Below the pieces are notes generated by a model. It searched no databases, was not told the origin of the DNA, and worked only from the letters and a program-made list of their open reading frames with translations. 64,000 bases of DNA from Candidatus Omnitrophota bacterium (lineage in GTDB: Bacteria; Omnitrophota; Omnitrophia; Omnitrophales; Aquincolibacteriaceae): NCBI GenBank assembly GCA_030698625.1, contig JAUYMS010000042.1:28150-92149 (forward strand), in the 5' to 3' direction. Position numbers and translations under genes: made by a program. Shown in pieces: positions 34,660-64,000 of this stretch; within the stretch, counting starts at the first letter, position 1, and every line of letters begins with the position of its first letter.

Positions 34660-34682
34660 TATAATGAGGGATGTCGAGCTTA

Positions 34683-45597: not shown

Positions 45598-45602
45598 AAC
45601 AC

Positions 45603-46175: not shown

Positions 46176-46195
46176 AATACCCTCCGAATTGAAAA

Positions 46196-46930: not shown

Positions 46931-46941
46931 GAGGGAAGGCG

Positions 46942-47544: not shown

Positions 47545-47566
47545 ACTCACGGTTTGAATTCCTCTT

Positions 47567-48484: not shown

Positions 48485-48637
48485 AATTATCCTTTCTTCT
48501 CCTTTTAAACGCGATAGAGTTTTTTATGTGATTACGCGCAAAAGAGCTAACTCGTTGAGTATTAGCGGCTTAAGAACAGCTCAGGGCCATGCTGAATTGG
48601 CTAGATATTATAGCAAAATCCGTAAGACCCACAAGCA

Positions 48638-49051
48638 CTATTTGGGGGGTTCTTCGAGGGGTTGGCGGGAGGTAAAACCCTTGCCGATTTCATGCCAAAA
48701 GCCGATTTCTTTCTCTCCGAGCTTCCAACAGAGGTAGACGACCTGGCCGGCATGGTTACTGTAAAAGTCGACCAGGCCCGCATCAATGTCCTTGAGAAAG
48801 CAGCCGAGGGCATGCACCTGATCCAGTACCTCATAGAAGATATTCACCTCTTCCTGATAGGCTGAAAGCTTCTGATTAACTGCCGGACTGGGCTCCTTCT
48901 CATCCTGCTCGGATACGATCTCCAACAGATCCACCTCCACCTCAAGCCGGGAGATCTTCTCCCTGAGGGCCTGCAGCTTACGGATAAGCTGCGAGAGGAC
49001 GGGCAGTGTTCCGTTGGCTTCTTCTAAAGTGAATAGTCTAACCTGGTCCAT
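48638..49051 (-). CDS. DUF2203-family protein
   Basis: 137 aa; RLFTLEEANGTLPVL N-terminus and coiled-coil centre as in the DUF2203 family. Confidence 0.45.
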   Translation of the reverse strand: MDQVRLFTLEEANGTLPVLSQLIRKLQALREKISRLEVEVDLLEIVSEQDEKEPSPAVNQKLSAYQEEVNIFYEVLDQVHALGCFLKDIDAGLVDFYSNHAGQVVYLCWKLGEKEIGFWHEIGKGFTSRQPLEEPPK

Positions 49052-49058
49052 AGTCTCC

Positions 49059-49517
49059 TTAGCGACTGACGATTTTCTCGGGCTGCCCTGTAGGGTAATG
49101 CAGCTTTATAGCTCTCTCTATATCGCGGGGCAGCGCGAGCACCGCACAAACCTTCGCTATACCGGCCGTCTCCTTGAGTTCATTGTCTGCCCACACATGG
49201 AAGGGCCCCGGAACGGCGATCGTCAAGACGTCGTCACGAATCTCCACGGGCAAAATCCCCAACTTCCTCGCCATCGTCGCAGGAACCTTAGCCAAGGCTT
49301 CCGGATTGATATGAGTCCTCTCCAGATCCACAAAGCGCATGCGGTTTTGTCTGGCCAAACTGCGGTAAAGCAATCCCCACGAGATGAAGCCCTTCCTTAC
49401 CAGAATCATCCCAGTCAACTCGCGGGTGTGACTCTGCTCATCGAGGGCCTCTTCCAACTGGACCCAGTTGATGAGTTTTTCACGAACTAGAATCTCTCCG
49501 ATACGCCATTGCATCAA
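49059..49517 (-). CDS. stand-alone T2SSE_N/MshEN-domain protein (candidate c-di-GMP receptor)
   Basis: Two copies of the MshEN-type motif (RIGEILVREKLINWVQLEEALDEQ ... GMILVRKGFISWGLL); 152 aa. Confidence 0.55.
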   Translation of the reverse strand: MMQWRIGEILVREKLINWVQLEEALDEQSHTRELTGMILVRKGFISWGLLYRSLARQNRMRFVDLERTHINPEALAKVPATMARKLGILPVEIRDDVLTIAVPGPFHVWADNELKETAGIAKVCAVLALPRDIERAIKLHYPTGQPEKIVSR

Positions 49518-49524
49518 TACGGAC

Positions 49525-50412
49525 TCACTTAGGCCTTGCCGCTCCCAGGTTGCGGTAAATCTCCGTCGTGGCTTGCGACTTGTTTAGGGTATAAAAATGA
49601 ATCCCCGGAGCCCCTTCTTTGAGAAGTTTTTCACATTGCTTCGAGGCATGCTCAATTCCGTAAGACTGCACCGAATCCTGGTCATCGCCATACCGCCCTA
49701 TGGCATCCCTCATCGCGGGAGGGATCTTGGCCCCGCACATTTCCGCAAACTTCTTAATCTGCGGCCCATGCGTCACCGGCATGATTCCCGGAACAATCGG
49801 CAGGTCGATTCCGGCCTCGCGCACTCGGTCCACAAAAGAAAAATAATCATCGTTATCGAAAAAGAGCTGAGTAATGATAACGTCCGCACCCTGCCCCACC
49901 TTAATCTTCAAATGTTCCAAATCCTTTTTTTTGTCGCGGCATTCTACGTGGCATTCCGGATAACCGGCAACGGCCAGGGAAAAAGAATCAGAAAACGTAG
50001 GGTGCTTGCGGATAAACTCCACCAACTCACTGGCATAGCGGAACCCTCCGGGAACCGGCTTAAATTCCGTTTCGCCTTTCGGCGGGTCGCCGCGCAAGGC
50101 CACGATATTCTCAATCCCTTGCTCCCAAAGCGCGCCGAGCACCCCTTCGATTTCGTCCCGGGTCTGCCCGACGCAGGTCAGATGCGCCGCGGCTTCGATG
50201 CCGATTTCCTCCTTAATCACAGAAACTATGCGGATGGTATTGTCACGCGTCGTGCCCATGGCACCATAGGTCACCGAGACAAAGGACGGAAACAGGCCCT
50301 TGAGAAGGTGGACTGTTTCGAAGAGCTTCTTCTCCCCCTCATCCGTCTTTGGCGGAAAAAACTCGAAAGAAAAGGTCTGTTCCTGCTGGCGGTAAATATC
50401 GGATATCTTCAT
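49525..50412 (-). CDS. metF: 5,10-methylenetetrahydrofolate reductase
   Basis: FSFEFFPPKT ... VSVTYGAMGTTRD MetF signatures; 295 aa. Confidence 0.9.
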   Translation of the reverse strand: MKISDIYRQQEQTFSFEFFPPKTDEGEKKLFETVHLLKGLFPSFVSVTYGAMGTTRDNTIRIVSVIKEEIGIEAAAHLTCVGQTRDEIEGVLGALWEQGIENIVALRGDPPKGETEFKPVPGGFRYASELVEFIRKHPTFSDSFSLAVAGYPECHVECRDKKKDLEHLKIKVGQGADVIITQLFFDNDDYFSFVDRVREAGIDLPIVPGIMPVTHGPQIKKFAEMCGAKIPPAMRDAIGRYGDDQDSVQSYGIEHASKQCEKLLKEGAPGIHFYTLNKSQATTEIYRNLGAARPK

Positions 50413-50458
50413 AAGTTAGAGGGATAATAGCGAACTACGGTATCAGTGACAAGCAACT

Positions 50459-51430
50459 TTAGAACCAGCTGACTCTCTTTTGCGCGGCCGGAATCTTCTT
50501 ATCATCCTCGTGCAGGCTTTCATTCATTTCCATCGGATGGGCTTGATGGACTCCCATCTGGGGGGCAAAAACAATGGAATCGGAGGAATTTACCGTTATC
50601 TGGCGCACTTCGCTCAGCATATCCTGCTTAAAGTCAATCATTGCCGGCTCCTCGCCGTCATCTTCAACGATCCCCTCGAGAACCGTGCGGCGATCCTGAA
50701 ACGGCGGATGCGTATTCATAAAGACGACGAACCGGCTCACGTCGTCCATTTCAATCTGTGTTAACCGTTCCACAAAGGCCTTGAAACCTCTGGGGTCGTA
50801 ACCGGCCGCGACAAGGTATTCAACGGCCTTTTCATCGGCGTGAATCTCGGCGTCCTTTCCAAACTGTCGGCCAATATAGGGAGCCGCCTTGCCGGTGTAT
50901 TTTACGGCGTAATAAGCGGCCGTTCCGTAGGTTCCGATACTGTTGCGGGCCAGTTCGGTACCTTTAGACAAAGCGTCGTAGGCCTTCTTCATCTTGTCAT
51001 GCTTGGGAATATGCGAGTACTCGTAGTAGGAAATATGCCCAATTTCATGGGCTATAATACCGGCCAGCTCCGACTCGGAGCGGACAAAGTTAACCATGCC
51101 CCGCGTCATGTAGATATAGCCTCCGGGGCCGCCGAATATGTTCACATCATCACTATCGAGAAGAATTACGTGATAGGGCAGGTGGGGTCGCGTAGAAACA
51201 GCAGCGATGCTCGACGCAATCGCATTGAGATAAGTTTCAAACTTCGGGCTATCGTAGATCTGGTATTCCTCTAAGACCCGCCTGTGATTTTGCTCCCCAG
51301 CTCTAATCTCGACCAAATCATCTAACGTTAGCGGAAGTTCTTGGCTTATAACACCCTTGCGATCAATGCGCGAGCAACCGGCAGCAACAACTATCATAGC
51401 TATCAGCACTGCGTAGGCCATTCGTGCCAT
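50459..51430 (-). CDS. M48-family zinc metallopeptidase lipoprotein (YcaL/BepA-like)
   Basis: HEIGH zinc motif and downstream EIHADEKAV / GYDPRG motifs; lipoprotein signal MARMAYAVLIAMIVVAAGCS. Start placed at the ATG at 51430, preceded by GAGGAG 8 nt upstream. Confidence 0.8.
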   Translation of the reverse strand: MARMAYAVLIAMIVVAAGCSRIDRKGVISQELPLTLDDLVEIRAGEQNHRRVLEEYQIYDSPKFETYLNAIASSIAAVSTRPHLPYHVILLDSDDVNIFGGPGGYIYMTRGMVNFVRSESELAGIIAHEIGHISYYEYSHIPKHDKMKKAYDALSKGTELARNSIGTYGTAAYYAVKYTGKAAPYIGRQFGKDAEIHADEKAVEYLVAAGYDPRGFKAFVERLTQIEMDDVSRFVVFMNTHPPFQDRRTVLEGIVEDDGEEPAMIDFKQDMLSEVRQITVNSSDSIVFAPQMGVHQAHPMEMNESLHEDDKKIPAAQKRVSWF

Positions 51431-51504
51431 GAGGCACTCCTCGTTCATTAATCTACTTCTTCCTATAATAGAATATACCTCGTCAGCGATCGATTTACAA
51501 TTTT

Positions 51505-51777
51505 CTAGAGGAGCGTAAAAGCGAGCATCCCCATGAGGATCATGAGGATAATAAGGATAAGCCTTCCGTCCTTGATCCATTTCGCAAGCTTTCCGATCGG
51601 CCCGGAATCATCAAAAACCCGTTCGCCGCAATAGAGGCAGGAAAAGCTATTTTCCTTAATCGGCTGGCCGCAATGACGGCATGAAATATCGGCAAGAGGC
51701 CGGGATTCTTCGGCTTCCCATTTCTTGCGAAGGCTCTCGGGTTCTTCTTCCTCTTCTTCGTTAGGCATAAATCTCAA
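51505..51777 (-). CDS. small zinc-ribbon protein with acidic N-terminus and C-terminal TM helix, translationally coupled to giant gene C
   Basis: CRHCG...CLYCG zinc ribbon; C-terminal LILIILMILMGMLAFTLL. ATG overlaps the gene C stop by 17 nt. Confidence 0.5.
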   Translation of the reverse strand: MRFMPNEEEEEEPESLRKKWEAEESRPLADISCRHCGQPIKENSFSCLYCGERVFDDSGPIGKLAKWIKDGRLILIILMILMGMLAFTLL

Positions 51778-54700
51778 CGGCCTTTTGTGAGCGGAGTTCT
51801 TCGACGTATTCCGCTAGGTTGATGATAAAGGCTCCCCGGCTTGAAGAGACGCCCGGTAGGATCATCGGCAATTGCCGGATCAGAATTTCGCGCTGTTTTA
51901 TGGGATCGCTGACGCCGCGAATGAGTTCGGCCGCCTTTAATATTTCGGGGATCATAAGCGCCGCAGCCTGACGGTCGGTTTCGTGCACCTCATCCGGATT
52001 CAAAACAAAATTCGCCGAGCCGATGATATCGCTCAGGTATTGCACGTCATCGGCCAGGAACGCCGCTACCGCATAATCATGGGCCTTGATATAGGAATTC
52101 ATCGCCTCCGCGACGGAGCCCTCGTAAGAGACAACCTCGATGAGCTTATCAAGACGTGAAAGGAGACCGCCGCTACGGCGCAGTGCCATGGTCTTGACCA
52201 TGCCGAGCCCGATTTCCGCATTACGATTCGTCAGCCTGCGGCGAATTTCCGCATAAAGCGCGGGGTTGGCCATCACGGCCACGAAGGGCTCGCTGCTCTG
52301 CGACTGGGCATGAAACTCATCAAGCGCCTCCAAAAAGACATAAAGTGCGCGCGGGGAATCCAGTAAGGCCTGCATCCAATCCGGATCTAAAATGACACGG
52401 CCGGTCCCGGATTCGGCAAGGCCGGGATGATCAGCCTGAACGCGTTCAGGATAATTCACGGCTGCCATGTACTTACCGCCGGCTTTTTCAATCGCACTTT
52501 CGACACGCTCCGGAAAAATTCCGGCCGTAACAGCAAACACCTTTTTGCCGAGCACCTGACTGAGCAGATCCCGAGCGCCTTCGGGCCCGAGGGTCTGAAC
52601 CAGAAGACGCGACATCAGAAATTCGCGAAACTTCTTCAGGGTGATAAGCGCCTCCGGTGAAACCGTTACGACAGGCGAACGCCTGGGCCCCTCCGCGCGC
52701 AATTCCGATCTGTCTGTATCATGAACGGATAATTTGGGAATAATGGCACGAACAGCATCAACCAACGGTGTCGGGACACGAGAGTTGATCATGTGAGCGT
52801 TTCTCGGCTTTCCGATGCCCGGGGAATCGGCCTTCACTTGAGCCATGCCGATCTTATCCGTCTCCTTGGCGCGGTTGGGATAGATTTCATAGTAAACTTC
52901 GGCAATGAGACGTGCCCACTCATACTTGGTCAGCGATTCCGCTCCGTTAATCTGATGGATACCGGTCTTGTTCCCTTGAATAATGTCTAGGGTCAGACTG
53001 GCCACATCCCGCACCGAGGTCGGATGGCGCACCTGTTCGTTATCCAACACGAGAGATGCGCTCTCATCATCCGAATCCAGGAAATCGACGACTTGTTTAA
53101 TGAAATTTTTCTGGATGGCGGCTTCACCGTAACCGATACCCAGCCTCACGACCGCGCCCTTGGGATGCTCGAGCACAAGCTTCTCTCCGGCAGCCTTCGT
53201 TTCCCCATAATAATTGAGCGGCCGGGGTTCGGCGTCTGCGCCATACGGAGCGTTGCCTCCTTCGAAGACATAATTGCTGGACAGATAAATGAGCGGGCCG
53301 TCGAAATATCTGCGGACAGTCTCAACGGCCGTCACATTGAGCGCATAGGCCTTGGCGCGATCGGCTTCCGCCCCCTCGGCGGTAGGTTCTCCGGCCGCAT
53401 AGACAATCACGTCGGGCCGGAATTCAGCGATGAATCGCCGCACGGCCGCCTCATCCTTCACATCGAGCGCCGCGAAAACGTCACCCACGCGGCTGTATGC
53501 GGTGCCGCTCACATTCGCGTAAACTTTGCGCGCGGCCTTGTCTATTTCGCTGCCGACAAAACTCGAGGCGCCAATAACGGCTACGCGCTTGGTTCTTAAT
53601 TCGGAGCGGTCGGCCAGATAGGTCTCTAACTCTTCAATCGCCTGACTGAAACTCGTTTCGTCAAAGCGGGTTGTTTCAATCTTTGACCAGATGTCACGGA
53701 GCTCCGGAGTGGAGTCCAGAATGCCCATCTCGAAAAAGCGGTGAACGACCTCATACACCGCCTGAACCGCCTGCTCGTAGATCACGCTCATCTTCCACTC
53801 CCTCTCGTCGCCCACGACGTGATACGGCAACAGTCCCGCCAGCAAAGTGGCATGGGTGAAAAGTAACCTATCCTTCCAAAAGCCGTTCACTTCAAAAGGA
53901 AAGAGTTCATCTTTGACGGTATCGTCGCGCATGAAAACACGAAAAGCGGCAGAAAACTCTTTGATGTTGCTGAGCATATTGGCGGTGTTCGCATCACTGA
54001 GATCATGATATTCCGACAATACGGCGGCGCCCCCTTCGGTTCCGGGCAGCTCAATCTCAAAATGGTAGGCGTGGGAATGATTCAAGGCCAGGTCATAACG
54101 GCCCTCTTGGTTATGAAGGAGTTTGGCAAAATCGTAGAGCGGGTCATTCCCTTCGGCCATCCATTTGGGATCCACAAACTTCATACGGGAGATTTCTCCG
54201 GTAATCGCATAGTGGAAGCGATCGATCAGGATGTTCCCGAAGTGGAGATCGCCCATCTGTTCCGACAGATAAGGCGGGACAAATCGCATGGGATGAAGCG
54301 AGGACAGGAGCTCCAACACCCTCTTCGTGGTCGGAAGGTTGGGGCGATACTGCTTCTGCAAAGGAGACGTCATGCCGTTGTACCGATTGACCTTTCGCTT
54401 CCGGATCTCGAGATAAGGGGCCGCCAGAAGACGCCGGGCCACTTCCGAATCACGAGCGGCTTCCGCCCACCGTTCATCCAGTTTCTCAAAGTGCTTTTGA
54501 TCGACAAAATCTTCGGGAGTATCCGCCACTTTTTTAAGATAGAGATCGGGCAACAAGTTCCGATAAATATCCACGGCCATCTCAAAGGGCGTTCGATTTG
54601 CCAAACTGAGTTCCGGGCTCAGCACACTGTGTTCGATGACTCGGGTCAGATTCGGCCACGGGATGTCCTCCATCTCGACGACAGTATCCTCTCCATCGTC

Positions 54701-57700
54701 ATGGATCCTGAGGAGCTTGGGGAACCATTCGCCGCGCTTATCACCCTCACTCTGCAGTCGCCGGATAAACTCGGCTTCGCGGCGCAGCTTGCCTTTGTCT
54801 TTGGCCGTATTCGCTCTTTTTTCAATAAGCACACGGCCATCCGGATAGAATTTTCTTTCCACGGTACTGTAGGACCCACCGTGCAGGCGTTCTGATCTCA
54901 CGCCTAAACCTGCTATTCGGGCAATATTCGGAATTCCATAGCGAGACGTGCGGCCAAACCGCGATCCCAGCGGGTAGTAATCCCCCATCATAAAATAAAT
55001 CTCCGGCACCACATTTCGCCTAACGGGCACGCTAACGACCTCCACTTCCGCCTTTTTGTCCGAGGCCACTTCCCGCATGAAGACCAAACCGCCGCCGCCC
55101 GTTGCCGCGGCAACGATGGACGCGTCAACCACCTGCTGCGCTTCTCGAACCACCTGCTTGGACGCAAAATGAATTTCGGCCGTGAGATAGTGGAATAATT
55201 TCTCATGCTCCTCGTAATTCCATACCTTTGTATCGCCGGCTGCTTTTTGCCACTTTTCCGGGGAGTCTTCCGCCGGTATCAGCGCCCAGCGAAATCCGTC
55301 GCGCTCAGCCTGACGCGTCAGAGCCTTGAATTTCTGCTGATCGCCCGAATTCAGCGCCGCAAATAATGTTTCGTCAGTCACCTCTACTTCGCGCAGCTCG
55401 GAGCGGTCAGTGCCGGCAATCGCGGCGGCTTTTCTCGGCAATACGAAGGCATGTCCGTCTTCATCATAGCGCCTTCCCAGGTAGCCAAAAAGCCGGCCAA
55501 AAAAGTCTCGATCACTGTCTGTGAATTCAACCGCCATCTCGTTATAGACAGAATCCGGATCGACAAACAAAGCGAATTTAGGCGAAAAATCCTGGGCAAT
55601 CGCAAACTCATTGTCGGCAACGTGGCGCAGAGCTGCCGCTGAACGGCTAAACAGCCCATGAAGCCTTTGCATCTCAGGCTCAGAGAGCGCAATGCGGCCA
55701 TACCACTCTTCGAGCAGCGCGCGCGCCGCTTCGTCACCGGCTTGTCCGGCCCTACTCTCCAGGAACATTGCGATGAACATGGCAATGTGGTCCAAAATGA
55801 CGGCCCGTGAAATTTTCTTGTAGGCTGGCAGCTCTTCAGCCGAAATGTCACTGACATCCGGGACAAGAATCGTATGGATCAGTGTGACAAAATCATCTGC
55901 CTGAATGCCCCGCACCGCCGAACCCGCCACGTATCTAAGATCATCGCCGCCTAGTTGCGTGCGCAGGATGCCAATATTTTCCGTTATGAATCCGATGTCC
56001 TGCCCTTTTCGGCCGAAGAGGGCCGCGATATCACCGAAGTCACCGTTGCTTAACACCCGGGTAAATCCCTCGGAAGGTTTATGGACATCCGCCAAGTTAT
56101 TAACCTCGAGCCCTGCAATCTCGGGCCGTCCTTTAAAGAGAAGCCCGAACCGCGGTTCTGCGATGTCAAGCATGTCGTCAACCAGTTCCAATTTACCTTG
56201 AAAGATCCACTCCGTCTCTCGGGTGGAAATGCCTTGAACATCAGCCCACTGGTCGAAGGCCGTGCGCATAAGGGCCGAGAGCAAGCGCTTAGTCTTGTAG
56301 CCGCTCTCGGTCGCGACCAGTTCCTGCCGCAGTCCCTCGGCCTTGTCCAATGCCGCCGCTATCTGTGCCTCACTGCCCCCCAAGCTCTTGATTAACGTTT
56401 CAATCACGGTCTTAAAATGCGGGCCTTTTCTGTAATCCTCGCGCTTAAGGCCGGTCGCTTCGGCAACCACAAAAAGTCCCGTGAATAGAGAGCGGATAAG
56501 GATAAGCGCATCTTGTGGAATTGTGATCGGAACTAAGTCGCCTGTGTCTTTAAGAAGACCCGCGGGACTCACATTACGCGTAAATCCGGACTTAACATGC
56601 GTTGCCATGTCCACATACTTGATCGTCAGATGCGACTTCAATACCGCCGCAATATTGAGAGCCAACATCTCACTCAAGTCACTTAGGTAATTGTCTCGCG
56701 CCTTATCGAGATCGGGATCAATTTCATCGACAAGATAATTTTGCATACCCCCCACCATAATGTCTGAAAGCGAACGGGTGTCATCGACGATGACACGCAC
56801 CGAAGCATATAAAGGTTCCAGTTTTTCGCTCACGCCCAAACGCGAGAGATCTTCCCGGCTCAAAATCTCTTCGGCGGCGATGGTAATGGCCGATAGATAA
56901 GCGCCGTTTTCGAGAAGGAGTTTGTCGTGACGAACGGCCGCTTCTTCCTCAAGGCTCGAACCTCCTATGGCCACATTCGAGTGTTGATAAGACGTGAGAA
57001 AGACACCGCTTTTCCCTTCTAAGCGCGGATCTTGAACCACGCTGACTCCGGTTCCGTCGACCTGCTCGTGCCCCGCGTCGGCAAGCACCAACTGCGGAGC
57101 CGCTGTACCGGCTATCACATCCGCAAGAGGCGCGGTATGCATCGTATATTTTCCGCCAATCCCTTTGTACTGTAGGGCAATGACTTCAAACGCTAATTTG
57201 TGCCCAAGCTGACGCGCGAAATTAAAAAGCGCAATCATGTAAAGAGCGCGGTAAACCTCATCGTACATTTCCAAACCGGGAATAAGGCGGTCTCCGAACT
57301 CCGTCTTACTGACCCCAGCTACGCCCGACCTCGTCTGTTCTTTAATCTCGGCAAGCGCCGCATCTGCCGCCTGACCCATTTCCTCCCCGATAAAGGCCTC
57401 ATAATCCTGCGCCGTCGCAAGAATTTTCATCTTCCCGTCGTTGACGATCATCTTGATTTTATTCTTCGGCATTAAGACGGTCCCCTGCCGAGTCGGTTTG
57501 ACGGCCGTCTGAAGCAGCGGCAAATGCACATAGGCATTCTCGCTGTCTCTAACCCACTCCAGCCCGACGGAAGCCATCTCCTCTTCGGTGAGTTCAGTAC
57601 CATCCTCCCTATGAATAGCGCCGACAAAGGGAATAACCATGTCTGCAGCCAGATCGAAGTTACCTTGGCCATCGTATCGCGCGAACTTTTTTGATTTTAC

Positions 57701-60700
57701 GCGCAGAAGGCGTGCCTCTTTCAACACTTGGGGAATTCCGGCAAACGACCCGCGCACAAGCCGTTCGCTTGGGTTTGGATTTTGCGTATCCACATTGAGA
57801 CCTGACATAAAAATCCGGCCTCCCAACCGCTTCATCACGGGGAAATCCAGTAACTTGTCCAGCCCCAAGGCAAATTCTGCCAAGGTTCCTATGGAAAAGG
57901 GGTACGGGTGAACGATCTTTGTTTGCCCTTTCTGCTCCGCGACGTGCCAGCGGAATCGGCCTACCCACTGTTCAACGACATCACGATCGATCGTGATGTC
58001 GTGCACATTGTCGGCGGACGCCGTCGCCCTCAGCTCAGAACGATCCTTCTCATCCTCGAAAGATCGGAGGAAATCGTCAGCCGCTTCCGTATCGAGAAGG
58101 CGCTCTACCAACACATCCACAGGGACATCGTCACTGTAGTAAAGTTGGATGGCTTCAAATAAAAAGCTCCATCCTAAGCGGGCGCGAGTCGCTTTGCTCT
58201 CCCGGGCATGAACGGGGTTTTCAGGATCCAGTTCGCGCGCTTGCTCGTGCTGGAGAATCGCCAATCGGTAATACCGGTGGGCGTCCCACCAGTCCAAGAC
58301 CTCTGCCGCGGCATCCCCGCCTAAACGATAAGCATTCCCGAGCGCCGCATGGGCGGAGGTTTTCTGCGCTGTTGCGATGCGGTCGTCGGCCGTATAGGTA
58401 AGCGCCGCTTCCTGCTTTTTGATGGCCCGCTCATAGAGATCTTCGGCCTTACGAAGATTACCCAATTCCACTTCGACGTTCGCCTGCCTCAGGTAGTTGG
58501 TGCCTTGAGCGCTTAGGATTTTGGCCATCACACCGGCGTACTTGGATCTTTGCTCAGGCTCGCCTGGTTTGTTTATTCCGATACCGGTCTGCTCGGTGAT
58601 GTCGTCCAATGCTTTTCGAGCTCGAGTTCTCTTTTTTCCCTTCTTGGGTGCCTCTGCGCTTTTTAGGGCGAACTTTTCCGCCTTGCCAAGGTGGCCCATG
58701 GCCTTTCTGAGGATTTTAAGCCGTTGACGCGGATCGTGTTGCAATTCATACGAAACATCAATGGCTGTAGAGACATCCACGGCTGTCTGAAACCACTCGT
58801 CGGCCCTTTCGATATTGAGGCCGGCTTTTCCGCCTTCGGTAGTCGGGCCCAACAAGTAGCGATGTTCGGCCGGGTCCGGGCCGGCCGGCGCCGCGTCCTC
58901 CTGCTTGGTCGATAGCATGTACTGCCTGAGGAACCGCTTCACGACCCGCTCGTCACGGCCGTTTCCGAGATGCCGGTTCAGCATGTGTACGACAAACTTC
59001 TTGGTTTGTTCCAACCCCGCACCGTTTTCACCACCGGCCGCTTTGTAGACATGCGCCACCAGGGCTTCAAAGAGAGTCGAGTGATAATCTTCGCCCTCGG
59101 TCACCAACTGGGAGTGGACATCTGCAAGCGCGGCCATCATCACACTCGCCAAAAGGCGGTTGGAGGCGATAATGCCGTGCAGATGCCGGAAGACATCGTA
59201 CTGTTTCCACTCATCGGGCACATCATCGGCTCGCCACATATCGACTAAAAGCGATAGAACAACCATATCCAATATCGAGTCACCCCAGGTCGCGTACCGT
59301 TCGTCGATAATAAAAGGGAACTTATGCGGAGTCGCGCTGGTGGCATACTCCCGCTGTCCCTTAGACGCCGTTGTAATGGCCATGAGCTGGTCAGGTGAGA
59401 GGCGGTTGCCTTCAAAAAGGATCTCTCCCAGTTTCGCGCGTGCTTTCGGATGAGCATCCAGCAAGGTGCCTACGGCAAGTAGCTGCCTACGGCGCATGGG
59501 CGGGCCGGTATGCGGTTCAAAGATCGGTTCCATCGAGGTTCCCTCCGGCTCATAATCCAGGCCGTCAAACGACGGGTGCAGCAACGCTTTAATGGCGCTC
59601 TCATGGCCTTCCGTGTACAGGGCCCCGATCATAAGAAACATGAGATATTTACGCGTGTCACGCGTCGCATAAAAGGCGTTCGGATCAAAATCTCCGGCCC
59701 CCTTCGCCAGCTCCGTGAAAGAGTTATAAAGTTTGTGATGACCTAACCACAGTTCCCGCACTGAAGGGTCGGCCGCGTTAATAAAGTCGTGCAGACTTTT
59801 TTCATGAATGCCTGGATAACGGCCCATCGCATATTGAATGAGGGCGTGTTTGTATACAAAATTACCCAGGAAGTAGAAGAACCCGGCCTGCTTCGCTAAC
59901 TTTCCTTCGGTTGAAACGCGCATAAGCGCCGCTGCGCCTTTTTCCCATGCCGCACGCTGCTCGTCACTTTCAGAGGCGATGTGCTGCGCATAGGCCCCGT
60001 CAACGCGTGCAAAGTCACGCTTCGTGGGATCCGTCGTTCCGCGCGGCCCCTTACGGTAAACATAGGCGCGGCGTCTGCGGCGGTCGGTTGCCGTTCTTAT
60101 CTTTTCAAAACCCATGTAATTAAGCCAGGCAAACTGTTTATTGTCATCGATCTCGCGGACCGGGATATCCGTGATAAGGACCCCTCCCTCGCGGAGGGCA
60201 TTATGGGCCGTCGCGTAAAACGTGCTGAAGCTCGCGACGCGGTTTTGCTGCACTCCGAGCATGAGGCCGCTTCTTTTAACCTCCATGCCGTCCATATAAA
60301 TCAGATCCAATTCATCCTTGTATTCCAACAGGGCATCGGCCAAAGCAAAGGGGTTGTACGAACTCCCCAGCGGATCAACTGCCGGAATGCTGTCAATCGT
60401 CATACCCCGCTTTCTGAAATCTAAATTGAGAGCCGCGGACTCTTCACGATCCCCCACATGAACGGCTTTCTTCCCCTCCACACCCCCCGGGAAATATTCT
60501 CTGACGGCAATGTGGAGAAGTTCGTGTCCGGGCCGCAAATTTGCCTCTCTGGCGGATTTTAGTTTTGCCTGCATGCGATGATTTATGACATGCTTGAGAA
60601 AATCCTGGGTCATCTCACTGTCGCTTGGTGTCCCTTTACGAAACGCCAGCAGAAGCTGTCCGGGCAGATTTCCTATCACTTTAATTTGCTCAAAACCCAT

Positions 60701-63700
60701 GTAGCGCAGCCACGCCGACTGTTTGCCCTCGGCCGCCCCGCCTTCAGGCACCGTCACAAAAAGGACTCCGTCATCTTTGATCAAGTCGCGAAGGGCCCCA
60801 TACCGGACCGAAAATGCGGTCGTCCCGTTCCTCTCATCTCCCGGCATCATCCCGCCCTCCCGCACCGCTTCTCCGTCAAAATACACAAAGTCATATTGTT
60901 CACTTTCTTCAAGCACCATATTGGAACGGCCCAGGAGTTCGTCATAGAGCGCTTCTCCCATCCGAGACTCCCCTTCGGAATCGAGACGTGTGATCTCATC
61001 CATCTCGGCACCCCGAGCTTTAAGTGCCGCCTGAAGCTGATCGGCACCTTTGACCGAACCGATTTCAAGACCGCGCTTTCCTTTGAGGTCGTCGCCATAA
61101 TAAGCGTCAAACGCTAAGTAGAAATTGAGAAGTTCCGGTCTTTTTACCGTCGCCATCCCCTTCCCCATTTTTTCTGTCCGGAGCCTCAGGACATCCGTAT
61201 TCTTTGCCTCCGTCCTGAGTTCAGAGCGCTGGGAAAAGGAGGCTTGGAAGTGGTCTGCCGCTTCGCGCGCAACCCGAAGCACGGCCTCAGGCGCCGGGTG
61301 ATGGCCTTCCCCTTCGAGCATAACCAGCGGCGACCCCGTCTCACTTGCGAATTGCGTCATGAGGTCGCGGTCGGTCTGATGTGTAATCCAATCTTTGTCG
61401 CCAAAAAACAGGAGTGTGGGGTGTTCTTTTGCTTTCAGCCGGCTGAAGTCGTCGATGGAAAAACCGTACTTGTTCAACTCAACCATGAGCCGAAGATGCC
61501 GTCTTAAGCGGCCGCTAATATCAGCGCCCCCGGGTTCCATCCCAAGCACATTCCCGGCATAGGCATCCATATGCCAGATATTCCGCGAAGAAGTAAAGGT
61601 GGCTCGGGCAGGAGCATTGATCGTCGCTGTTGCCCGCACATTTTTCGCCACGAAGTCTGAATTCGCCAGAGCGCGCAATGCCGCATAACCCCCAAAGCTG
61701 TATCCGAACATCGCAATATTTTGGGCTTCGATCTCCGGACGCCCCTGCAGAAAACCAATGGCGGCTTCCACGAAGCGCACCAGGTGCTCGGGGCCCTCGA
61801 GCGGCGTGTCGTGATCGCCGTGTCCGGGAAAACTCAGTCTAAACACCGCAAAGCCGCGATCTATCATTTCCATTTCGATCGGGTCTAACTCCGCCTGCTC
61901 ATGGGTATGCGTTAAACCATGGAGCAGGATCACAACGGGAACCTTTTGCCCCGGATCTCGATGCGGAGGGAGAAAGAGATAACCGGGATAACTCGGGTGG
62001 GTAATCTCTTCGATCTCAGGCGGCACTCGGCCTGCCTCTTCATATTCGGCCACGCGGCCCTTTTTATAGATCCCGCGATGGGCGCCCTCGACTTCGTGAC
62101 TCCGCCCAATTTTCTGCGTCGTGTAACTCTGTGCGTTATAGAGAAGCCTTCGCTGCTGGGCGATGTCGCCTGCCTCATGCGCCAACCGAGCCTCGTCGAG
62201 CAGGATTTCCCGCAAGGCCGGAATCCATTGTGTGAAAAAAGCAAGCCGTGCGGTCCGTTCGATGATACGCTCAGTGGTCTCCTCACCGATTCGCGAAGCA
62301 ATCATCGCGGCACGGACCTCCCCCTTATTAGTGAGAAACCACTTCCTCCACTGATACCAAGGGTTGAAACGAGTGCCGGGCGGAAGCTCAGAGCGCTCGG
62401 CTCGCAATTCGGAGCGTTCCTTTTTCGGATCCCACCGGAACTTCCATTTCTGATCCAGTCGAATATCGGGAAAGTCCTCAAGAACTGTTCCCTGCAAATC
62501 ATCATATTGCCAAAGTCCGTCACGAACTTTTTGCAGGCCCATATTTTCAAATTCACGGGGAATGCGTGTCTCAGCGGGTACATGGAGCTCGAGCACTTCG
62601 GCCCCGTTGGCTTTGGCCAGCCGCATCGCAAGGATCAGGAATGTGCGCGTAAGTCCGATATACCTGTCCTCACCGCGAGCTGTCAGGTCAACATCGTTGG
62701 TCGATACCGCTGCCTTTTCCCCGCGAAGCTCCAGGCTCAAGGAGCCCACCGACACTTCCGCGTCGCTCTTAGACGTTCTCGCATTGCCCTCGATGCGGAC
62801 AGAGACGTGATTTTCGGCACGAGTCCTTTCCCAGCGAAAATAGATATTTCTAAAGGAGTTCGACAAAGGCAGCCTAAAGCGGCCGAGTCGCGGGGATTCG
62901 TTGCCGCGCATGACCGTATCAAAAGTCGTGGTCTCGCGCGAGGCCGCCAGGGCCCTTTTACGAAGATAGTTCTCGCTAATCTCCACAACCGCTCTTCGAA
63001 TGTCATGAATGCGCTGTTCTTTCGGTTGGCCTTCGTACAGGGATGCGTACACGTGCAAGGTGTAAAGAATGTTGGGGATTGCCGTTTGTGTCCATGCCGG
63101 CAGCCAGTCCTGCCAGAATTCCTCCAACTGACTCTGCAGCGCGGCAGGGGGAGTCGGAACCACGCGTTTCGGAAAACCTTTGGCCGACATCAAGCGTTTG
63201 AACTCAACAAAGAACTCCTCAATCAGACCCGCTCGCAGTAGAAGATAGACAATTTCCTCCTGAATCCTGTACGGAAGGATCATACTCCCGGAATCGGTTC
63301 GCTGTGCGTGGTGCAGCATACGGCGTGCCCTGCGGTAAAAGTGCTCGGCCTTTTTGGAGTGCCCCATACTGTCATAGGCCACGCCCCAGACCTCGAGTTT
63401 GTGAGCCGCATTCCCGAAATTCTCACGGGTCAAAAGATCCGCATGGTTCGCGTAGTCTTCCGCGCCACGCCGAACCTTCTGTATGGCGGCTTCCAACCCG
63501 TCAGCATAAGCCACAATGCCCGGTTCCTCAGCCAACACCCGCCGGGCATCCTCTTCAGCCGTAACCTGATCTTCTATGACCAGAGGGCTAAGAACCGCGT
63601 CTATCTGCTTATCCGTAATCCCCTCAAAGAGAACACTCTTGTCTTTGAAATCCTCCTTGGCTACCTCGGCACGGATGCGGTCGTGACGGACCTGTGCCGT

Positions 63701-64000
63701 ATAACCTTCCTCATGCAGGTCGTGAAAGAGGTCAATGACATATTGCGCCCGGTTCAGGTAAAGCGCCACGATAACCTGGTGGAGCTCATTGTCGGGCTCA
63801 AGATAGTCGAGCAGCTTTTTGGAGATATAGATTGCCCGGCGTCTGAGTGACAAACGGCTGGGTTCGGCAAATTTGGTTTCGAGATCGGAAAAATAGAAAT
63901 AGGTGTGCATGTCCTTACCGATGACCGTCGTCGTGCTCTCAAATGTCTCAATCCGCGCCTGCATCTGGCGATCACCGGCCGCCCGGGCGATCTGCTTCCA
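51761..64000 (-). CDS. giant multidomain protein C (at least 4079 codons; N-terminus outside window): TPR-like regions, alpha/beta-hydrolase, methyltransferase-like repeats, RNase III-like signature, APH-like kinase, RmlD-like reductase
   Basis: Track ORF 51761..63964 (4067 aa). The frame upstream of the listed ATG stays open to nt 64000 (WKQIARAAGDRQ-M...), so the listed start is internal. Seven in-frame RSELR copies at 52697-52711, 53594-53608, 55391-55405, 58028-58042, 61214-61228 and a tandem pair at 62384-62416. Confidence 0.85.
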   Translation of the reverse strand, partial: WKQIARAAGDRQMQARIETFESTTTVIGKDMHTYFYFSDLETKFAEPSRLSLRRRAIYISKKLLDYLEPDNELHQVIVALYLNRAQYVIDLFHDLHEEGYTAQVRHDRIRAEVAKEDFKDKSVLFEGITDKQIDAVLSPLVIEDQVTAEEDARRVLAEEPGIVAYADGLEAAIQKVRRGAEDYANHADLLTRENFGNAAHKLEVWGVAYDSMGHSKKAEHFYRRARRMLHHAQRTDSGSMILPYRIQEEIVYLLLRAGLIEEFFVEFKRLMSAKGFPKRVVPTPPAALQSQLEEFWQDWLPAWTQTAIPNILYTLHVYASLYEGQPKEQRIHDIRRAVVEISENYLRKRALAASRETTTFDTVMRGNESPRLGRFRLPLSNSFRNIYFRWERTRAENHVSVRIEGNARTSKSDAEVSVGSLSLELRGEKAAVSTNDVDLTARGEDRYIGLTRTFLILAMRLAKANGAEVLELHVPAETRIPREFENMGLQKVRDGLWQYDDLQGTVLEDFPDIRLDQKWKFRWDPKKERSELRAERSELPPGTRFNPWYQWRKWFLTNKGEVRAAMIASRIGEETTERIIERTARLAFFTQWIPALREILLDEARLAHEAGDIAQQRRLLYNAQSYTTQKIGRSHEVEGAHRGIYKKGRVAEYEEAGRVPPEIEEITHPSYPGYLFLPPHRDPGQKVPVVILLHGLTHTHEQAELDPIEMEMIDRGFAVFRLSFPGHGDHDTPLEGPEHLVRFVEAAIGFLQGRPEIEAQNIAMFGYSFGGYAALRALANSDFVAKNVRATATINAPARATFTSSRNIWHMDAYAGNVLGMEPGGADISGRLRRHLRLMVELNKYGFSIDDFSRLKAKEHPTLLFFGDKDWITHQTDRDLMTQFASETGSPLVMLEGEGHHPAPEAVLRVAREAADHFQASFSQRSELRTEAKNTDVLRLRTEKMGKGMATVKRPELLNFYLAFDAYYGDDLKGKRGLEIGSVKGADQLQAALKARGAEMDEITRLDSEGESRMGEALYDELLGRSNMVLEESEQYDFVYFDGEAVREGGMMPGDERNGTTAFSVRYGALRDLIKDDGVLFVTVPEGGAAEGKQSAWLRYMGFEQIKVIGNLPGQLLLAFRKGTPSDSEMTQDFLKHVINHRMQAKLKSAREANLRPGHELLHIAVREYFPGGVEGKKAVHVGDREESAALNLDFRKRGMTIDSIPAVDPLGSSYNPFALADALLEYKDELDLIYMDGMEVKRSGLMLGVQQNRVASFSTFYATAHNALREGGVLITDIPVREIDDNKQFAWLNYMGFEKIRTATDRRRRRAYVYRKGPRGTTDPTKRDFARVDGAYAQHIASESDEQRAAWEKGAAALMRVSTEGKLAKQAGFFYFLGNFVYKHALIQYAMGRYPGIHEKSLHDFINAADPSVRELWLGHHKLYNSFTELAKGAGDFDPNAFYATRDTRKYLMFLMIGALYTEGHESAIKALLHPSFDGLDYEPEGTSMEPIFEPHTGPPMRRRQLLAVGTLLDAHPKARAKLGEILFEGNRLSPDQLMAITTASKGQREYATSATPHKFPFIIDERYATWGDSILDMVVLSLLVDMWRADDVPDEWKQYDVFRHLHGIIASNRLLASVMMAALADVHSQLVTEGEDYHSTLFEALVAHVYKAAGGENGAGLEQTKKFVVHMLNRHLGNGRDERVVKRFLRQYMLSTKQEDAAPAGPDPAEHRYLLGPTTEGGKAGLNIERADEWFQTAVDVSTAIDVSYELQHDPRQRLKILRKAMGHLGKAEKFALKSAEAPKKGKKRTRARKALDDITEQTGIGINKPGEPEQRSKYAGVMAKILSAQGTNYLRQANVEVELGNLRKAEDLYERAIKKQEAALTYTADDRIATAQKTSAHAALGNAYRLGGDAAAEVLDWWDAHRYYRLAILQHEQARELDPENPVHARESKATRARLGWSFLFEAIQLYYSDDVPVDVLVERLLDTEAADDFLRSFEDEKDRSELRATASADNVHDITIDRDVVEQWVGRFRWHVAEQKGQTKIVHPYPFSIGTLAEFALGLDKLLDFPVMKRLGGRIFMSGLNVDTQNPNPSERLVRGSFAGIPQVLKEARLLRVKSKKFARYDGQGNFDLAADMVIPFVGAIHREDGTELTEEEMASVGLEWVRDSENAYVHLPLLQTAVKPTRQGTVLMPKNKIKMIVNDGKMKILATAQDYEAFIGEEMGQAADAALAEIKEQTRSGVAGVSKTEFGDRLIPGLEMYDEVYRALYMIALFNFARQLGHKLAFEVIALQYKGIGGKYTMHTAPLADVIAGTAAPQLVLADAGHEQVDGTGVSVVQDPRLEGKSGVFLTSYQHSNVAIGGSSLEEEAAVRHDKLLLENGAYLSAITIAAEEILSREDLSRLGVSEKLEPLYASVRVIVDDTRSLSDIMVGGMQNYLVDEIDPDLDKARDNYLSDLSEMLALNIAAVLKSHLTIKYVDMATHVKSGFTRNVSPAGLLKDTGDLVPITIPQDALILIRSLFTGLFVVAEATGLKREDYRKGPHFKTVIETLIKSLGGSEAQIAAALDKAEGLRQELVATESGYKTKRLLSALMRTAFDQWADVQGISTRETEWIFQGKLELVDDMLDIAEPRFGLLFKGRPEIAGLEVNNLADVHKPSEGFTRVLSNGDFGDIAALFGRKGQDIGFITENIGILRTQLGGDDLRYVAGSAVRGIQADDFVTLIHTILVPDVSDISAEELPAYKKISRAVILDHIAMFIAMFLESRAGQAGDEAARALLEEWYGRIALSEPEMQRLHGLFSRSAAALRHVADNEFAIAQDFSPKFALFVDPDSVYNEMAVEFTDSDRDFFGRLFGYLGRRYDEDGHAFVLPRKAAAIAGTDRSELREVEVTDETLFAALNSGDQQKFKALTRQAERDGFRWALIPAEDSPEKWQKAAGDTKVWNYEEHEKLFHYLTAEIHFASKQVVREAQQVVDASIVAAATGGGGLVFMREVASDKKAEVEVVSVPVRRNVVPEIYFMMGDYYPLGSRFGRTSRYGIPNIARIAGLGVRSERLHGGSYSTVERKFYPDGRVLIEKRANTAKDKGKLRREAEFIRRLQSEGDKRGEWFPKLLRIHDDGEDTVVEMEDIPWPNLTRVIEHSVLSPELSLANRTPFEMAVDIYRNLLPDLYLKKVADTPEDFVDQKHFEKLDERWAEAARDSEVARRLLAAPYLEIRKRKVNRYNGMTSPLQKQYRPNLPTTKRVLELLSSLHPMRFVPPYLSEQMGDLHFGNILIDRFHYAITGEISRMKFVDPKWMAEGNDPLYDFAKLLHNQEGRYDLALNHSHAYHFEIELPGTEGGAAVLSEYHDLSDANTANMLSNIKEFSAAFRVFMRDDTVKDELFPFEVNGFWKDRLLFTHATLLAGLLPYHVVGDEREWKMSVIYEQAVQAVYEVVHRFFEMGILDSTPELRDIWSKIETTRFDETSFSQAIEELETYLADRSELRTKRVAVIGASSFVGSEIDKAARKVYANVSGTAYSRVGDVFAALDVKDEAAVRRFIAEFRPDVIVYAAGEPTAEGAEADRAKAYALNVTAVETVRRYFDGPLIYLSSNYVFEGGNAPYGADAEPRPLNYYGETKAAGEKLVLEHPKGAVVRLGIGYGEAAIQKNFIKQVVDFLDSDDESASLVLDNEQVRHPTSVRDVASLTLDIIQGNKTGIHQINGAESLTKYEWARLIAEVYYEIYPNRAKETDKIGMAQVKADSPGIGKPRNAHMINSRVPTPLVDAVRAIIPKLSVHDTDRSELRAEGPRRSPVVTVSPEALITLKKFREFLMSRLLVQTLGPEGARDLLSQVLGKKVFAVTAGIFPERVESAIEKAGGKYMAAVNYPERVQADHPGLAESGTGRVILDPDWMQALLDSPRALYVFLEALDEFHAQSQSSEPFVAVMANPALYAEIRRRLTNRNAEIGLGMVKTMALRRSGGLLSRLDKLIEVVSYEGSVAEAMNSYIKAHDYAVAAFLADDVQYLSDIIGSANFVLNPDEVHETDRQAAALMIPEILKAAELIRGVSDPIKQREILIRQLPMILPGVSSSRGAFIINLAEYVEELRSQKAVEIYA
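52950..53590 (-). other. RmlD-like (dTDP-4-dehydrorhamnose reductase / extended SDR) NAD(P)-binding domain within protein C
   Basis: KRVAVIGASSFVGSE glycine-rich loop ... PLIYLSSNYVFEGGNAPYGADAEPRPLNYYGETKAAGE (YxxxK catalytic dyad); the domain begins 3 residues after an RSELR. Confidence 0.6.
53950..55380 (-). other. APH/choline-kinase-like phosphotransferase domain within protein C (paralog of the protein B domain)
   Basis: HGGSYSTV ... EQMGDLHFGNIL ... GNDPLYDFAKL; catalytic-loop codons at about 54231-54262. Confidence 0.6.
58990..59300 (-). other. RNase III-like signature region within protein C
   Basis: ERYATWGDSILDMVVLSLL (compare ERLEFLGDSIL), SNRLLASV (compare NTLAELA), and STLFEALVAHVY (compare DTVEALIGGVF). 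The D-to-E spacing of 71 residues matches RNase III D45-E117. The position equivalent to D114 is Thr. Confidence 0.35.
61250..61960 (-). other. alpha/beta-hydrolase fold domain within protein C
   Basis: VVILLHGLTHTHEQ ... GYSFGG nucleophile elbow (DNA 61691-61711) ... later acid and His (GEGHHP). Confidence 0.7.
62384..62416 (-). repeat. tandem RSELR-A-ERSEL peptide motif (two adjacent copies of the linker motif) in protein C
   Basis: KERSELRAERSELPPG encoded by CGC TCC GAA TTG CGA GCC GAG CGC TCT GAG CTT; the two copies use different codons. Confidence 0.7.

Follow-up and report, generated by a model that had tools for sequence, protein, structure and literature searches.

The giant open reading frame C, which runs off the right end of the window (the 64,000-nucleotide stretch of DNA analysed here), encodes a chain of self-contained, mutually unrelated, enzyme-sized modules, C1 to C7, each border of which is marked by the pentapeptide RSELR. 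We put at about even (a probability near 0.5) the chance that C and the two other giant frames of the window are exported polyproteins that are cut at RSELR into separate enzymes, possibly by the TIKI/RRSP-fold module found at the N-terminus of such proteins. If so, they would exemplify a route of protein making, the processing of a polyprotein into enzymes, that is hardly known in bacteria. The three frames are as follows:

2..20182, minus strand: giant ORF A, at least 6,727 aa, C-terminus past the left window end; 12 RSELR, no cysteine
37859..45337, minus strand: giant ORF B, 2,492 aa; 3 RSELR, no cysteine; kinase-like and glycogen-synthase-like modules
51761..64000, minus strand: giant ORF C, C-terminal 4,079 codons plus stop, frame open past nt 64000

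From its ATG, C occupies 51761..63964 (minus strand, 4067 aa), and the 12 further codons up to nt 64000 are all open. The initial annotation had taken this to mean that the protein is longer than 4067 aa and that its N-terminus lies outside the window, and both points were confirmed. The public Logan contig SRR13727534_12411 matches window positions 41867..60412 at 100% identity, and gene C is called on it at 5,478 residues, overrunning the contig end. Full-length C thus comprises no fewer than 5,478 codons, and 1,399 or more of its residues lie beyond the window; an in-frame stop just past nt 64000, which would make the ATG at 63964 the true start, is not seen. This rightward extension did not reach the N-terminus, which lies beyond the end of the public contig as well. 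Similarity of C to two large proteins, P0003 and P0004, also extends upstream of Met-63964. Several modules of C are without close database relatives, the only point in favour of an artefact, in which the frame would be an assembly chimera or a product of fused or decayed genes and the RNase III likeness described below would be due to chance. This explanation is close to refuted: the 12.2-kb frame is free of stops, the independent public assembly is identical across 18.5 kb, the same architecture is present in three metagenome contigs, and the RNase III-like domain, which real RNase III profiles match, is found again in three large, unrelated proteins.

The six exact copies of RSELR in C, which were not part of the initial annotation, are located as follows:

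62402..62416, minus strand: separator 1, aa 529-533, followed by a near-copy, RSELP
61214..61228, minus strand: separator 2, aa 925-929
58028..58042, minus strand: separator 3, aa 1987-1991
55391..55405, minus strand: separator 4, aa 2866-2870
53594..53608, minus strand: separator 5, aa 3465-3469; the RmlD-like Rossmann strand begins 2-3 residues on
52697..52711, minus strand: separator 6, aa 3764-3768

Across the three giant ORFs, 21 exact copies were observed against 0.04 expected from composition. None was found in the rest of the window, and the background in unrelated genomes is 3 per 2.2 million codons. In A, B, and C the motif always stands between modules, and none of the Pfam domains of the three ORFs has it inside. 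The five codons are free to vary, indicating that it is the peptide, rather than the DNA, that is under selection. The flanks show no conservation, except that in 17 of 21 cases Ala, Thr, or Ser comes next; since a small residue usually follows, cleavage after the second Arg is suggested. A basic residue ahead of the motif and a small one behind it resemble a protease site. Homology between module C5 and module B2 of protein B spans from separator to separator, the RmlD-like fold begins where stand-alone RmlD proteins naturally start, and in one relative (L072) a SecA module begins right behind the variant RSEMR. Separators are absent at some domain borders: module C3 holds several domains with no RSELR between them, and the RmlD-like and kinase-like parts of the relatives L071 and L073 are fused without one.

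The modules and domains of C, from the N-terminal side, are:

62417..64000, minus strand: module C1, no known family, cut by the window end; residues 13-309 homologous to P0003 and P0004
61274..61939, minus strand: alpha/beta-hydrolase domain of C2, aa 688-909; Pfam Abhydrolase_1/6 above threshold
60632..61141, minus strand: duplicated alpha/beta unit, copy 1 (in C3), aa 954-1123; no family assigned
60047..60535, minus strand: duplicated alpha/beta unit, copy 2 (in C3), aa 1156-1318
59561..59923, minus strand: tentative RNase III-like domain a (FLGNFVYKHALIQYAMGRYPGIHEKSL...LMFLMIGALYTEG), both key carboxylates replaced
58955..59326, minus strand: RNase III-like domain b, aa 1559-1682, from profile methods
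55406..58027, minus strand: module C4, 874 aa, no relatives detected
53609..55390, minus strand: module C5, kinase-like (GGSYS..V, IEKRA, GDLHFGNIL, VDPK), paralog of B2
52712..53593, minus strand: module C6, RmlD-like extended SDR (GASSFVG, YGETK); Pfam RmlD_sub_bind E 1e-39
51764..52696, minus strand: module C7, 311-aa C-terminal module, no known family

Most of the folds proposed earlier for C were recovered. The alpha/beta hydrolase has its GYSFGG nucleophile elbow at nt 61705, the RmlD-like reductase has YGETK at aa 3598, and C5, which by sequence is APH/protein-kinase-like, is indeed shared with protein B (35% identity to B2 across its full length) and the best-conserved module of the giant-protein family. 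The tandem Rossmann/methyltransferase-like units are a true duplication (30% identity between copies, E 3e-25), but their label did not hold, as no Pfam match was found and the PDB profile matches were only to de novo TIM barrels. Behind these two copies, C3 has one degenerate domain of RNase III type, or perhaps two in tandem, and then a helical repeat region.

Domain b is a real but divergent RNase III homologue. Like class 1 bacterial enzymes of the family, it has the GD signature (GDSILD at aa 1573) and the FEAL helix (FEALVAHVY at aa 1644). Its hhalign alignment with real RNase III (91%, E 9e-7) covers the entire nuclease domain, and all 13 of its 13 PDB profile matches are RNase III family members, with Drosha the best, so that a chance match is not borne out. 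It differs from the family in scoring below the Pfam threshold, in its replaced carboxylates, and in that no dsRBD was found. The initial annotation had one catalytic Asp replaced by Thr and a D-to-E spacing of 71, as in E. coli. The homology and the Thr at D114 stand, while a second loss, of E41 to Ala, had been missed; the spacing is 71 in domain b but 72 in E. coli RNase III. The equivalents of D45 and E117 are retained, and those of E41 and D114 are Ala and Thr or Asn in all four known members of this RNase III-like group. The suspicion of a pseudo-nuclease was supported: just two of the four metal-binding carboxylates are kept, and an RNA-binding or dimer-like scaffold is more likely than an active RNase III. 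A second, dead copy upstream, domain a, is tentatively suggested by a Drosha alignment that covers both a and b, though hhalign gives it just 12% over 34 columns; such a pair would mimic the intramolecular tandem of Drosha and Dicer. Neither the loss of E41 nor this possible copy had been noted before.

The occurrence of a nucleic-acid fold with sugar-nucleotide and kinase folds in one polypeptide had been called hard to rationalise, a puzzle that arises because C was taken as one integrated enzyme. We find it unlikely that a single pathway is at work, in which the RNase III-derived pseudo-nuclease or dimerisation module would cooperate with the kinase and the sugar-nucleotide enzymes. The folds are present as described, and the RmlD-like and kinase-like parts adjoin in C and in two relatives, suggesting that at least these two cooperate. 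However, the RNase III-like domain has quite different partners elsewhere (sigma-70 region 4 in P0002; HATPase_c and a methyltransferase in P0003) and is missing from L071-L073, which share the kinase-like module and, in the case of L071 and L073, the RmlD-like one, and the separators divide C into independently recurring units. Module order is shuffled, with the kinase ahead of RmlD in C and behind it in L071 and L073. Independent, shuffled modules are a known habit of the long multi-domain proteins of Omnitrophota, to which the separator is added here.

The giant-protein family, where relatives are named, belongs to Omnitrophota, and in the relatives RSEMR or another form of R-x-E-[LMVI]-R takes the role of RSELR. 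Two giant ORFs from a single metagenome together hold 17 copies of RSEMR; other relatives have R[SA]EVR, R[GP]ELR, or RAEIR. A GC-rich relative has GARLA five times instead, which may be unrelated to RSELR. R-x-E-[LMVI]-R was seen only in proteins that have the N-terminal module or are truncated ahead of it. Judged from these sequences, the motif is conserved yet drifts, a pattern that a protease and its target site would be expected to show, and RSELR would serve a sequence-specific endopeptidase as its recognition sequence.

Proteins A and B and their relatives begin with a common basic-hydrophobic-AWS|AP segment, a Sec-type signal peptide in A and B, followed by a predicted TIKI/RRSP-fold hydrolase module:

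18236..20074, minus strand: signal peptide and TIKI-fold N-terminal module of A, candidate processing hydrolase
43553..45319, minus strand: signal peptide and TIKI-fold N-terminal module of B, predicted

The AlphaFold model of the module is confident (pLDDT 83), and none of His88, Glu116, Arg468, and His496 varies among 17 sequences. The 28-residue spacings of His88/Glu116 and Arg468/His496 match, as sequence spacings without superposition, the RRSP catalytic pairs His3902/Glu3930 and Arg4001/His4030 (PMC6254334). The nearest named homologues are Omnitrophica MAG proteins; no sequence-level match to any Pfam or PDB TIKI member was found. Compared with the TIKI superfamily (Tiki, TraB/PrgY, erythromycin esterases, ChaN, RRSP, HopBA1), the fold is split here by a helical insert of ~300 residues. 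The fold does not by itself imply peptidase activity, as it also includes esterases (Ere) and haem-binding ChaN. We speculate that this module is the protease, and that C, too, probably begins with it.

Not a single cysteine is present in the 13,306 residues of A, B, and C, while neighbouring genes have 70 in 6,345 (1.1%); two relatives have none in 8,804 residues. Together with the signal peptides of A and B, this previously unnoticed lack suggests that the precursor is exported. Once released, the modules may act as a mixture of effector or surface enzymes, along the lines put forward for predatory Omnitrophota. Modules that depend on ATP, NAD(P)H, or sugar nucleotides make little sense outside the cytoplasm unless delivered into another cell, and no delivery machinery was identified.

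It is possible, if doubtful, that the giant proteins stay intact as membrane-tethered multi-enzyme scaffolds, with RSELR as a linker, a structural cap, or a docking motif for a partner, chaperone, or export checkpoint. An invariant inter-modular motif suits any trans-acting reader, not just a protease. For most long Omnitrophota proteins a membrane-associated assembly is predicted, and both A and C contain HEAT and TPR-like repeats, which would be able to bind peptides. Against this, the modules are complete and enzyme-sized, at least one has its natural N-terminus right after the motif, their order differs among relatives, the residues around the motif are protease-site-like, and the same proteins carry a TIKI-fold hydrolase whose catalytic residues are intact.

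Cleavage or reading of RSELR by another agent, such as a housekeeping or periplasmic protease, a prey or host protease acting after delivery, or the product of the neighbouring metallopeptidase gene, appears unlikely.

50459..51580, minus strand: M48 peptidase gene directly downstream of C, an alternative protease candidate by position only

This gene, called at 50459..51430 (323 aa) on the public contig, lies 180 nt from C on the same strand, and PMC6315884 places MARTX effector release in the target cell only. However, no M48 gene stands beside the giant ORFs of relatives in the flanks scanned, and the drift of the motif (RSELR, RSEMR, RAEVR, RGELR) favours a co-evolving, self-encoded reader over a prey enzyme.

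The proposed processing of these polyproteins into separate enzymes has parallels in known systems. Viral polyproteins with 3C/NIa-type proteases share a strict short peptide at every border, variable flanks, and lineage drift; here, in contrast, the genes lie on a bacterial chromosome, with rpsB-tsf-pyrH-frr between B and C, the enzymes are of metabolic type, and there is no chymotrypsin-like protease. Vibrio MARTX toxins have a cysteine protease domain that cuts after Leu, type I secretion, and glycine-rich repeat regions, none of which was seen in A, B, or C. They are also huge secreted precursors with unrelated effector enzymes, their cargo includes an alpha/beta hydrolase and a TIKI-fold domain (RRSP), and their own protease domain cuts short inter-domain sites, as may be the case here (PMC6315884, PMC6254334). 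In our case, the TIKI-fold module would be the protease and not cargo, the site would be R-S-E-L-R, and the paralogs carry a Sec-type signal.

The closest likeness in Omnitrophota is to the 'Archaeovorins', strings of enzyme domains in very long ORFs (bioRxiv 10.1101/2023.11.21.568195, 10.64898/2026.06.07.730766), in which glycosyltransferase, methyltransferase, TPR, and SecA-like domains follow signal peptides or TM segments. With its 5.5 kaa or more, C falls well short of their 30 kaa or more. The peptidase domains in the two papers are C39 and S8, and neither paper mentions a defined, invariant pentapeptide between modules, a total lack of cysteine, or an N-terminal module of TIKI fold. The 2026 survey of 916 long proteins (bioRxiv 10.64898/2026.06.07.730766) does not mention motifs, linkers, or cleavage; post-translational cleavage has already been suggested for this class of giant multi-domain proteins. 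A SecA-like module is also present in an ORF that has a relative of the kinase module of C.

The stretch under study falls in ORF C, one of three giant open reading frames on the minus strand of the window:

2..20182, minus strand: giant ORF A, at least 6,727 aa
37859..45337, minus strand: giant ORF B, 2,492 aa
51761..63964, minus strand: ORF C, 4,067 aa, with no stop in the 12 further codons up to nt 64000

Protein C is best explained as a polyprotein-like precursor of independent modules, with the pentapeptide RSELR as the dividing mark, and it is this separator system, more than the RNase III fold, that makes the locus interesting. The initial annotation had placed the N-terminus of C outside the window, and this holds. 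An exact-protein look-up of the neighboring MTHFR gene retrieved the Logan contig SRR13727534_12411, which is 100% identical to window positions 41867..60412 and on which the C gene is called at 5,478 residues and overruns the contig end. The contig has 26,333 nt and reaches 4,199 nt past nt 64000. C therefore has at least 1,399 residues more than are encoded in the window, with the N-terminus further out. The longer call, together with homology of the first module in the window (C1) to two database proteins, which extends upstream of Met-63964, rules out Met-63964 as the true start. The gene calls of the public contig also include an 87-aa ORF that overlaps C at its end. The giant genes are chromosomal, since ordinary housekeeping genes (rpsB, tsf, pyrH, frr, and MTHFR, at 45603–48484 and 49525–50412) lie between B and C. 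The RpsB protein is at most 58% identical to any species representative retrieved by a peptide-pattern scan, and those representatives come from many phyla; the relatives anchored in this way contained neither giant ORFs nor RSELR enrichment, and were used as background.

RSELR, which the initial annotation overlooked, occurs six times in C and 21 times across A, B, and C, and is absent from the rest of the window in any frame. The number expected from composition is 0.04, the next unrelated 5-mer by frequency occurs three times, and about 1.1 Mb of unrelated genomes, read in six frames, gave three matches. The flanks are unconserved, except that Asp often precedes the motif and Ala, Thr, or Ser follows it in 17 of the 21 copies. 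All five codons vary synonymously, which indicates selection on the peptide and excludes a DNA or RNA repeat. The separators coincide with module boundaries: no Pfam domain contains one, the RmlD-like fold of C starts 2–3 residues past RSELR, and the homology between the kinase-like modules of B and C (B2 and C5) spans separator to separator. RSELR is, in other words, a recurrent invariant peptide at the borders of functional units, the property by which processed polyproteins are recognized. In a full-text literature search, RSELR matched nothing but the names of software (e.g., varSelRF). In protein A, a strongly hydrophobic TM-like helix (aa 3631–3660, window 9268–9292) begins three residues past a separator (RSELR followed by PEDVFFILAAGLPIAAVLLHIL), and a second one is found near aa 4013; such helices would give some modules a membrane anchor of their own.

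The modules of C that could be assigned are of different kinds. The alpha/beta hydrolase proposed initially was matched by Abhydrolase_1 (44.2 bits) and Abhydrolase_6 (44.4 bits), both over the Pfam cut-offs, and its GYSFGG nucleophile elbow (GxSxG) is present; the other two triad residues, acid and His, were identified by eye only. The proposed tandem duplication was confirmed, residues 954–1123 and 1156–1318 being 30% identical (E 3e-25). Its description as Rossmann/MTase-like found no support. The duplicated unit had no Pfam match at E ≤10, its profile retrieved only de novo TIM barrels from the PDB, and the Gly-rich cofactor loop is degenerate in both copies; the unit thus has neither the family model or structural match nor the loop that identify a class I SAM methyltransferase or Rossmann domain. 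The kinase-like module C5, described initially as APH-like, is, as claimed, shared with protein B, with 35% identity over the full length. C5 itself had no Pfam match; within the kinase-like family, APH was matched by three of six members (best E 8.5e-4) and TCAD9 by four of six, and the motifs GDLHFGNIL and VDPK are invariant. Module C6 matched PF04321 with 136.8 bits (cut-off 27, E 1e-39), and GASSFVG (GxxGxxG) and YGETK (YxxxK) can be read in its sequence. Since the NCBIfam equivalog TIGR01214 scored 135 bits against a cut-off of 224, the proposed reductase is RmlD-like rather than RmlD. Searches of the PDB by phmmer were uninformative for both C4 and C5, a word-indexed homolog search with the whole C3 module (the duplicated unit and the RNase III-like region) gave no match, and neither did a scan of genome contigs with C1. 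Overall, what was observed in C at the outset was confirmed, and its interpretation was partly supported.

A profile of the kinase-like module detected three metagenome contigs with giant ORFs. Among the relatives, the separator is conserved and drifts in sequence. Two contigs of one sample contain RSEMR 17 times, along with single RSELR, RSEVR, and RAEMR variants, and in one ORF of this type, a SecA-like module begins directly after a separator. The third contig (L073:2060-11290, 65.7% G+C) has five copies of GARLA in place of the RSE[LM]R of the others; its N-terminal module and RmlD–kinase pair are the same. The order of the pair is not fixed, being kinase then RmlD in C, and RmlD then kinase in other lineages. 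A profile of the N-terminal module common to A and B retrieved 15 proteins, the named ones from ‘Candidatus Omnitrophica’ MAGs. In the longer proteins among the 15, the module is closely followed by R[SA]E[VLI]R or R[GP]ELR. R-x-E-[LMVI]-R was not found in three database proteins (P0002–P0004) that have the RNase III-like domain and lack the N-terminal module. Two of these, the low-G+C relatives P0003 (aa 1873 and 2532) and P0004 (aa 717), share C1 and the RNase III-like domain with C. Their regions are set apart by repeats of ‘GPGAA..D.xEFS’, perhaps another kind of separator; the N-terminal anchor (…IVWANPD) is similar, and the cysteine content is normal.

RSELR is most likely the recognition mark of a site-specific endopeptidase, as far as can be judged from sequence. 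Cleavage would take place at RSELR, probably after the second Arg. Phosphorylation of the motif Ser by the kinase-like module was excluded as the role of RSELR, because the RAEVR, RGELR, and RPELR forms of the relatives have no Ser. According to the main competing explanation, the protein would stay uncleaved as a scaffold, and RSELR would be a docking or linker element; selection on the peptide and its placement between modules have to be accommodated by either reading, and the separator is missing at some domain borders. We favor cleavage, and if it is real, the locus would be a rare case of a cellular organism expressing genes as polyproteins, and would imply a new protease specific for a site of five residues.

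The most economical protease candidate, albeit a speculative one, would be the module attached to the N-termini of the giant proteins. A, B, and the relatives start with a basic-hydrophobic segment ending in ...VAWS/AP or ...VAWA/Q, which by eye resembles a signal peptidase site (in the window, a signal peptide was seen on A and B only), followed by a module of ~500 residues. The profile of this module had no sequence-level link to the PDB or Pfam. The module has the alpha+beta fold, the 2His/2Glu set, and the conserved basic residue that define the TIKI superfamily; the proteins listed for it were HopBA1, the Ere-like 2rad and 2qgm, a TraB-family protein, ChaN, EreC, and the Ras/Rap1-specific endopeptidase of MARTX toxins (RRSP). 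H88, E116, R468, and H496 are invariant, with a distance of 28 residues from H88 to E116 and likewise from R468 to H496. In RRSP, the catalytic H3902 and E3930 are 28 residues apart, and R4001 and H4030 are 29 apart (PMC6254334); judged by residue spacing alone, the two sets may be equivalent. A positional alternative to the TIKI-fold module as the protease is the product of an M48 metallopeptidase gene at window 50459–51580 on the minus strand, the same strand as C and 180 nt downstream of it (called as 323 aa on the public contig). With regard to the TIKI-fold module, stand-alone versions of ~500–600 aa with their own N-terminal hydrophobic segment (P0010–P0019) were also observed, and these could act in trans.

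The giant proteins contain no cysteine: there is none in the 13,306 residues of A, B, and C, compared with 70 (1.1%) in the 6,345 residues encoded by the window's 19 other ORFs. The two relatives with RSEMR-type separators (L071 and L072) also lack it, over 8,804 residues. Cysteine is typically missing from proteins that pass through a membrane in the unfolded state or function outside the cytoplasm. As an indication of exit from the cytoplasm, its absence from over 13,000 residues is both independent and unusually clean and, together with the signal peptides, points to export, by which A, B, and C would all leave the producing cell's cytoplasm. Delivery of the module enzymes to prey would be a further, speculative step.

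The RNase III-like region of C3 was proposed from motif order and spacing, and it stands by profile methods, though the Pfam threshold was not reached. Ribonuclease_3 (PF00636) scored 14.6–18.9 bits against a cut-off of 27, with ~22–24 profile positions matched; the stretch alone gave a Pfam E of 0.059 over 22 profile positions only, and matched no sequence when run by phmmer against the PDB. With C residues 930–1780 as the query, HMMER run exhaustively over 1.84 billion representatives found just three proteins, all of which match exactly the RNase III-like stretch. The resulting 4-sequence profile retrieved only RNase III family chains from the PDB, with Drosha (E 0.003–0.005) followed by Dicer and a bacterial RNase III; all 13 matches at E ≤10 were Drosha, Dicer, or RNase III. 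PF00636 was touched by each of the four members, and when the 4-member profile was compared by hhalign with six bacterial rnc products annotated in PLSDB records, the probability was 91.4% (E 9.3e-7) over 111 columns, the whole nuclease domain. Together, these results show that the homology is real. An AlphaFold model from the 4-sequence alignment was all-helical with a pLDDT of 41, too poor for fold comparison.

The active site is more degraded than the single missing Asp noticed initially. At the equivalents of E. coli E41, D45, D114, and E117, the main domain of C (domain b) has Ala, Asp, Thr, and Glu, so that the loss of D114 is accompanied by loss of E41, and the four-carboxylate set is incomplete. 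Across the four homologs, the E41 equivalent is an invariant Ala, D114 is replaced by Thr or Asn, and D45 and E117 are invariant. The region thus lacks the canonical two-metal RNase III site, and a binding or scaffold role appears likelier; the domain represents a divergent, probably non-catalytic branch of the RNase III fold in bacteria. A second copy (domain a) may lie upstream of domain b. Its signature, FLGNFVYKHALIQYAMGRYPGIHEKSL ... LMFLMIGALYTEG, is conserved in two homologs, it has Asn and Met in place of D45 and E117, and the Drosha alignment bridges the two domains. Because domain a alone reaches just 12% in hhalign, the tandem arrangement is only tentative.

Omnitrophota have been described as possessing long multi-enzyme proteins (bioRxiv 10.1101/2023.11.21.568195, 10.64898/2026.06.07.730766), and the giant ones are a current puzzle, since their size blocks structure prediction and biochemistry. 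Neither of these survey preprints describes the separator, the cysteine lack, or the TIKI-like head; the 2026 catalogue of 916 long proteins (bioRxiv 10.64898/2026.06.07.730766) is silent on motifs, linkers, and cleavage. According to one of the preprints, the cleavage points of the giant proteins are unknown. Compared to Archaeovorin-type giant proteins, C (at least 5.5 kaa) falls short of the 30 kaa ORF length that defines them, A, B, C, and relatives have part of the GT, MTase, GH, TPR, and SecA-like mix, and the membrane/signal-peptide association is seen here as a signal peptide on A and B only. The assignment to Omnitrophota was drawn solely from how the closest homologs are named. The nearest functional analogues of C are MARTX toxins and viral polyproteins, but C is outside both on defining features: the protease and the secretion route differ, and C is encoded on a cellular chromosome. 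A strict, countable separator offers a rule for dividing giant ORFs into units to model, express, and seek in proteomes.

In the broadest reading, to which we assign a probability of roughly 0.3, predatory or parasitic Omnitrophota would export cysteine-free giant precursors by the Sec route, and an N-terminal TIKI-family endopeptidase would cleave these at a pentapeptide that differs between lineages (RSELR in the present one; RSEMR, RAEVR, or RGELR elsewhere). Enzymes otherwise of cytoplasmic type (kinase, reductase, hydrolase, glycosyltransferase, RNase III-like) would thereby be released, and would act outside the producer or inside prey.

Some neighboring genes are also of note. A PMT/ArnT-like GT-C glycosyltransferase gene (L071:1706-3388) lies directly upstream of the giant ORF of L071, and a PMT_2 gene is found in the window at 30956–32635 on the minus strand, ~5 kb from B. 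Window 33430–37425, where G+C drops to 0.47–0.49, encodes a PIF1-like helicase, a DUF2204/DUF6036 nucleotidyltransferase, and an ORF with a recombinase zinc-ribbon, and may be the remnant of a mobile element adjoining giant gene B.
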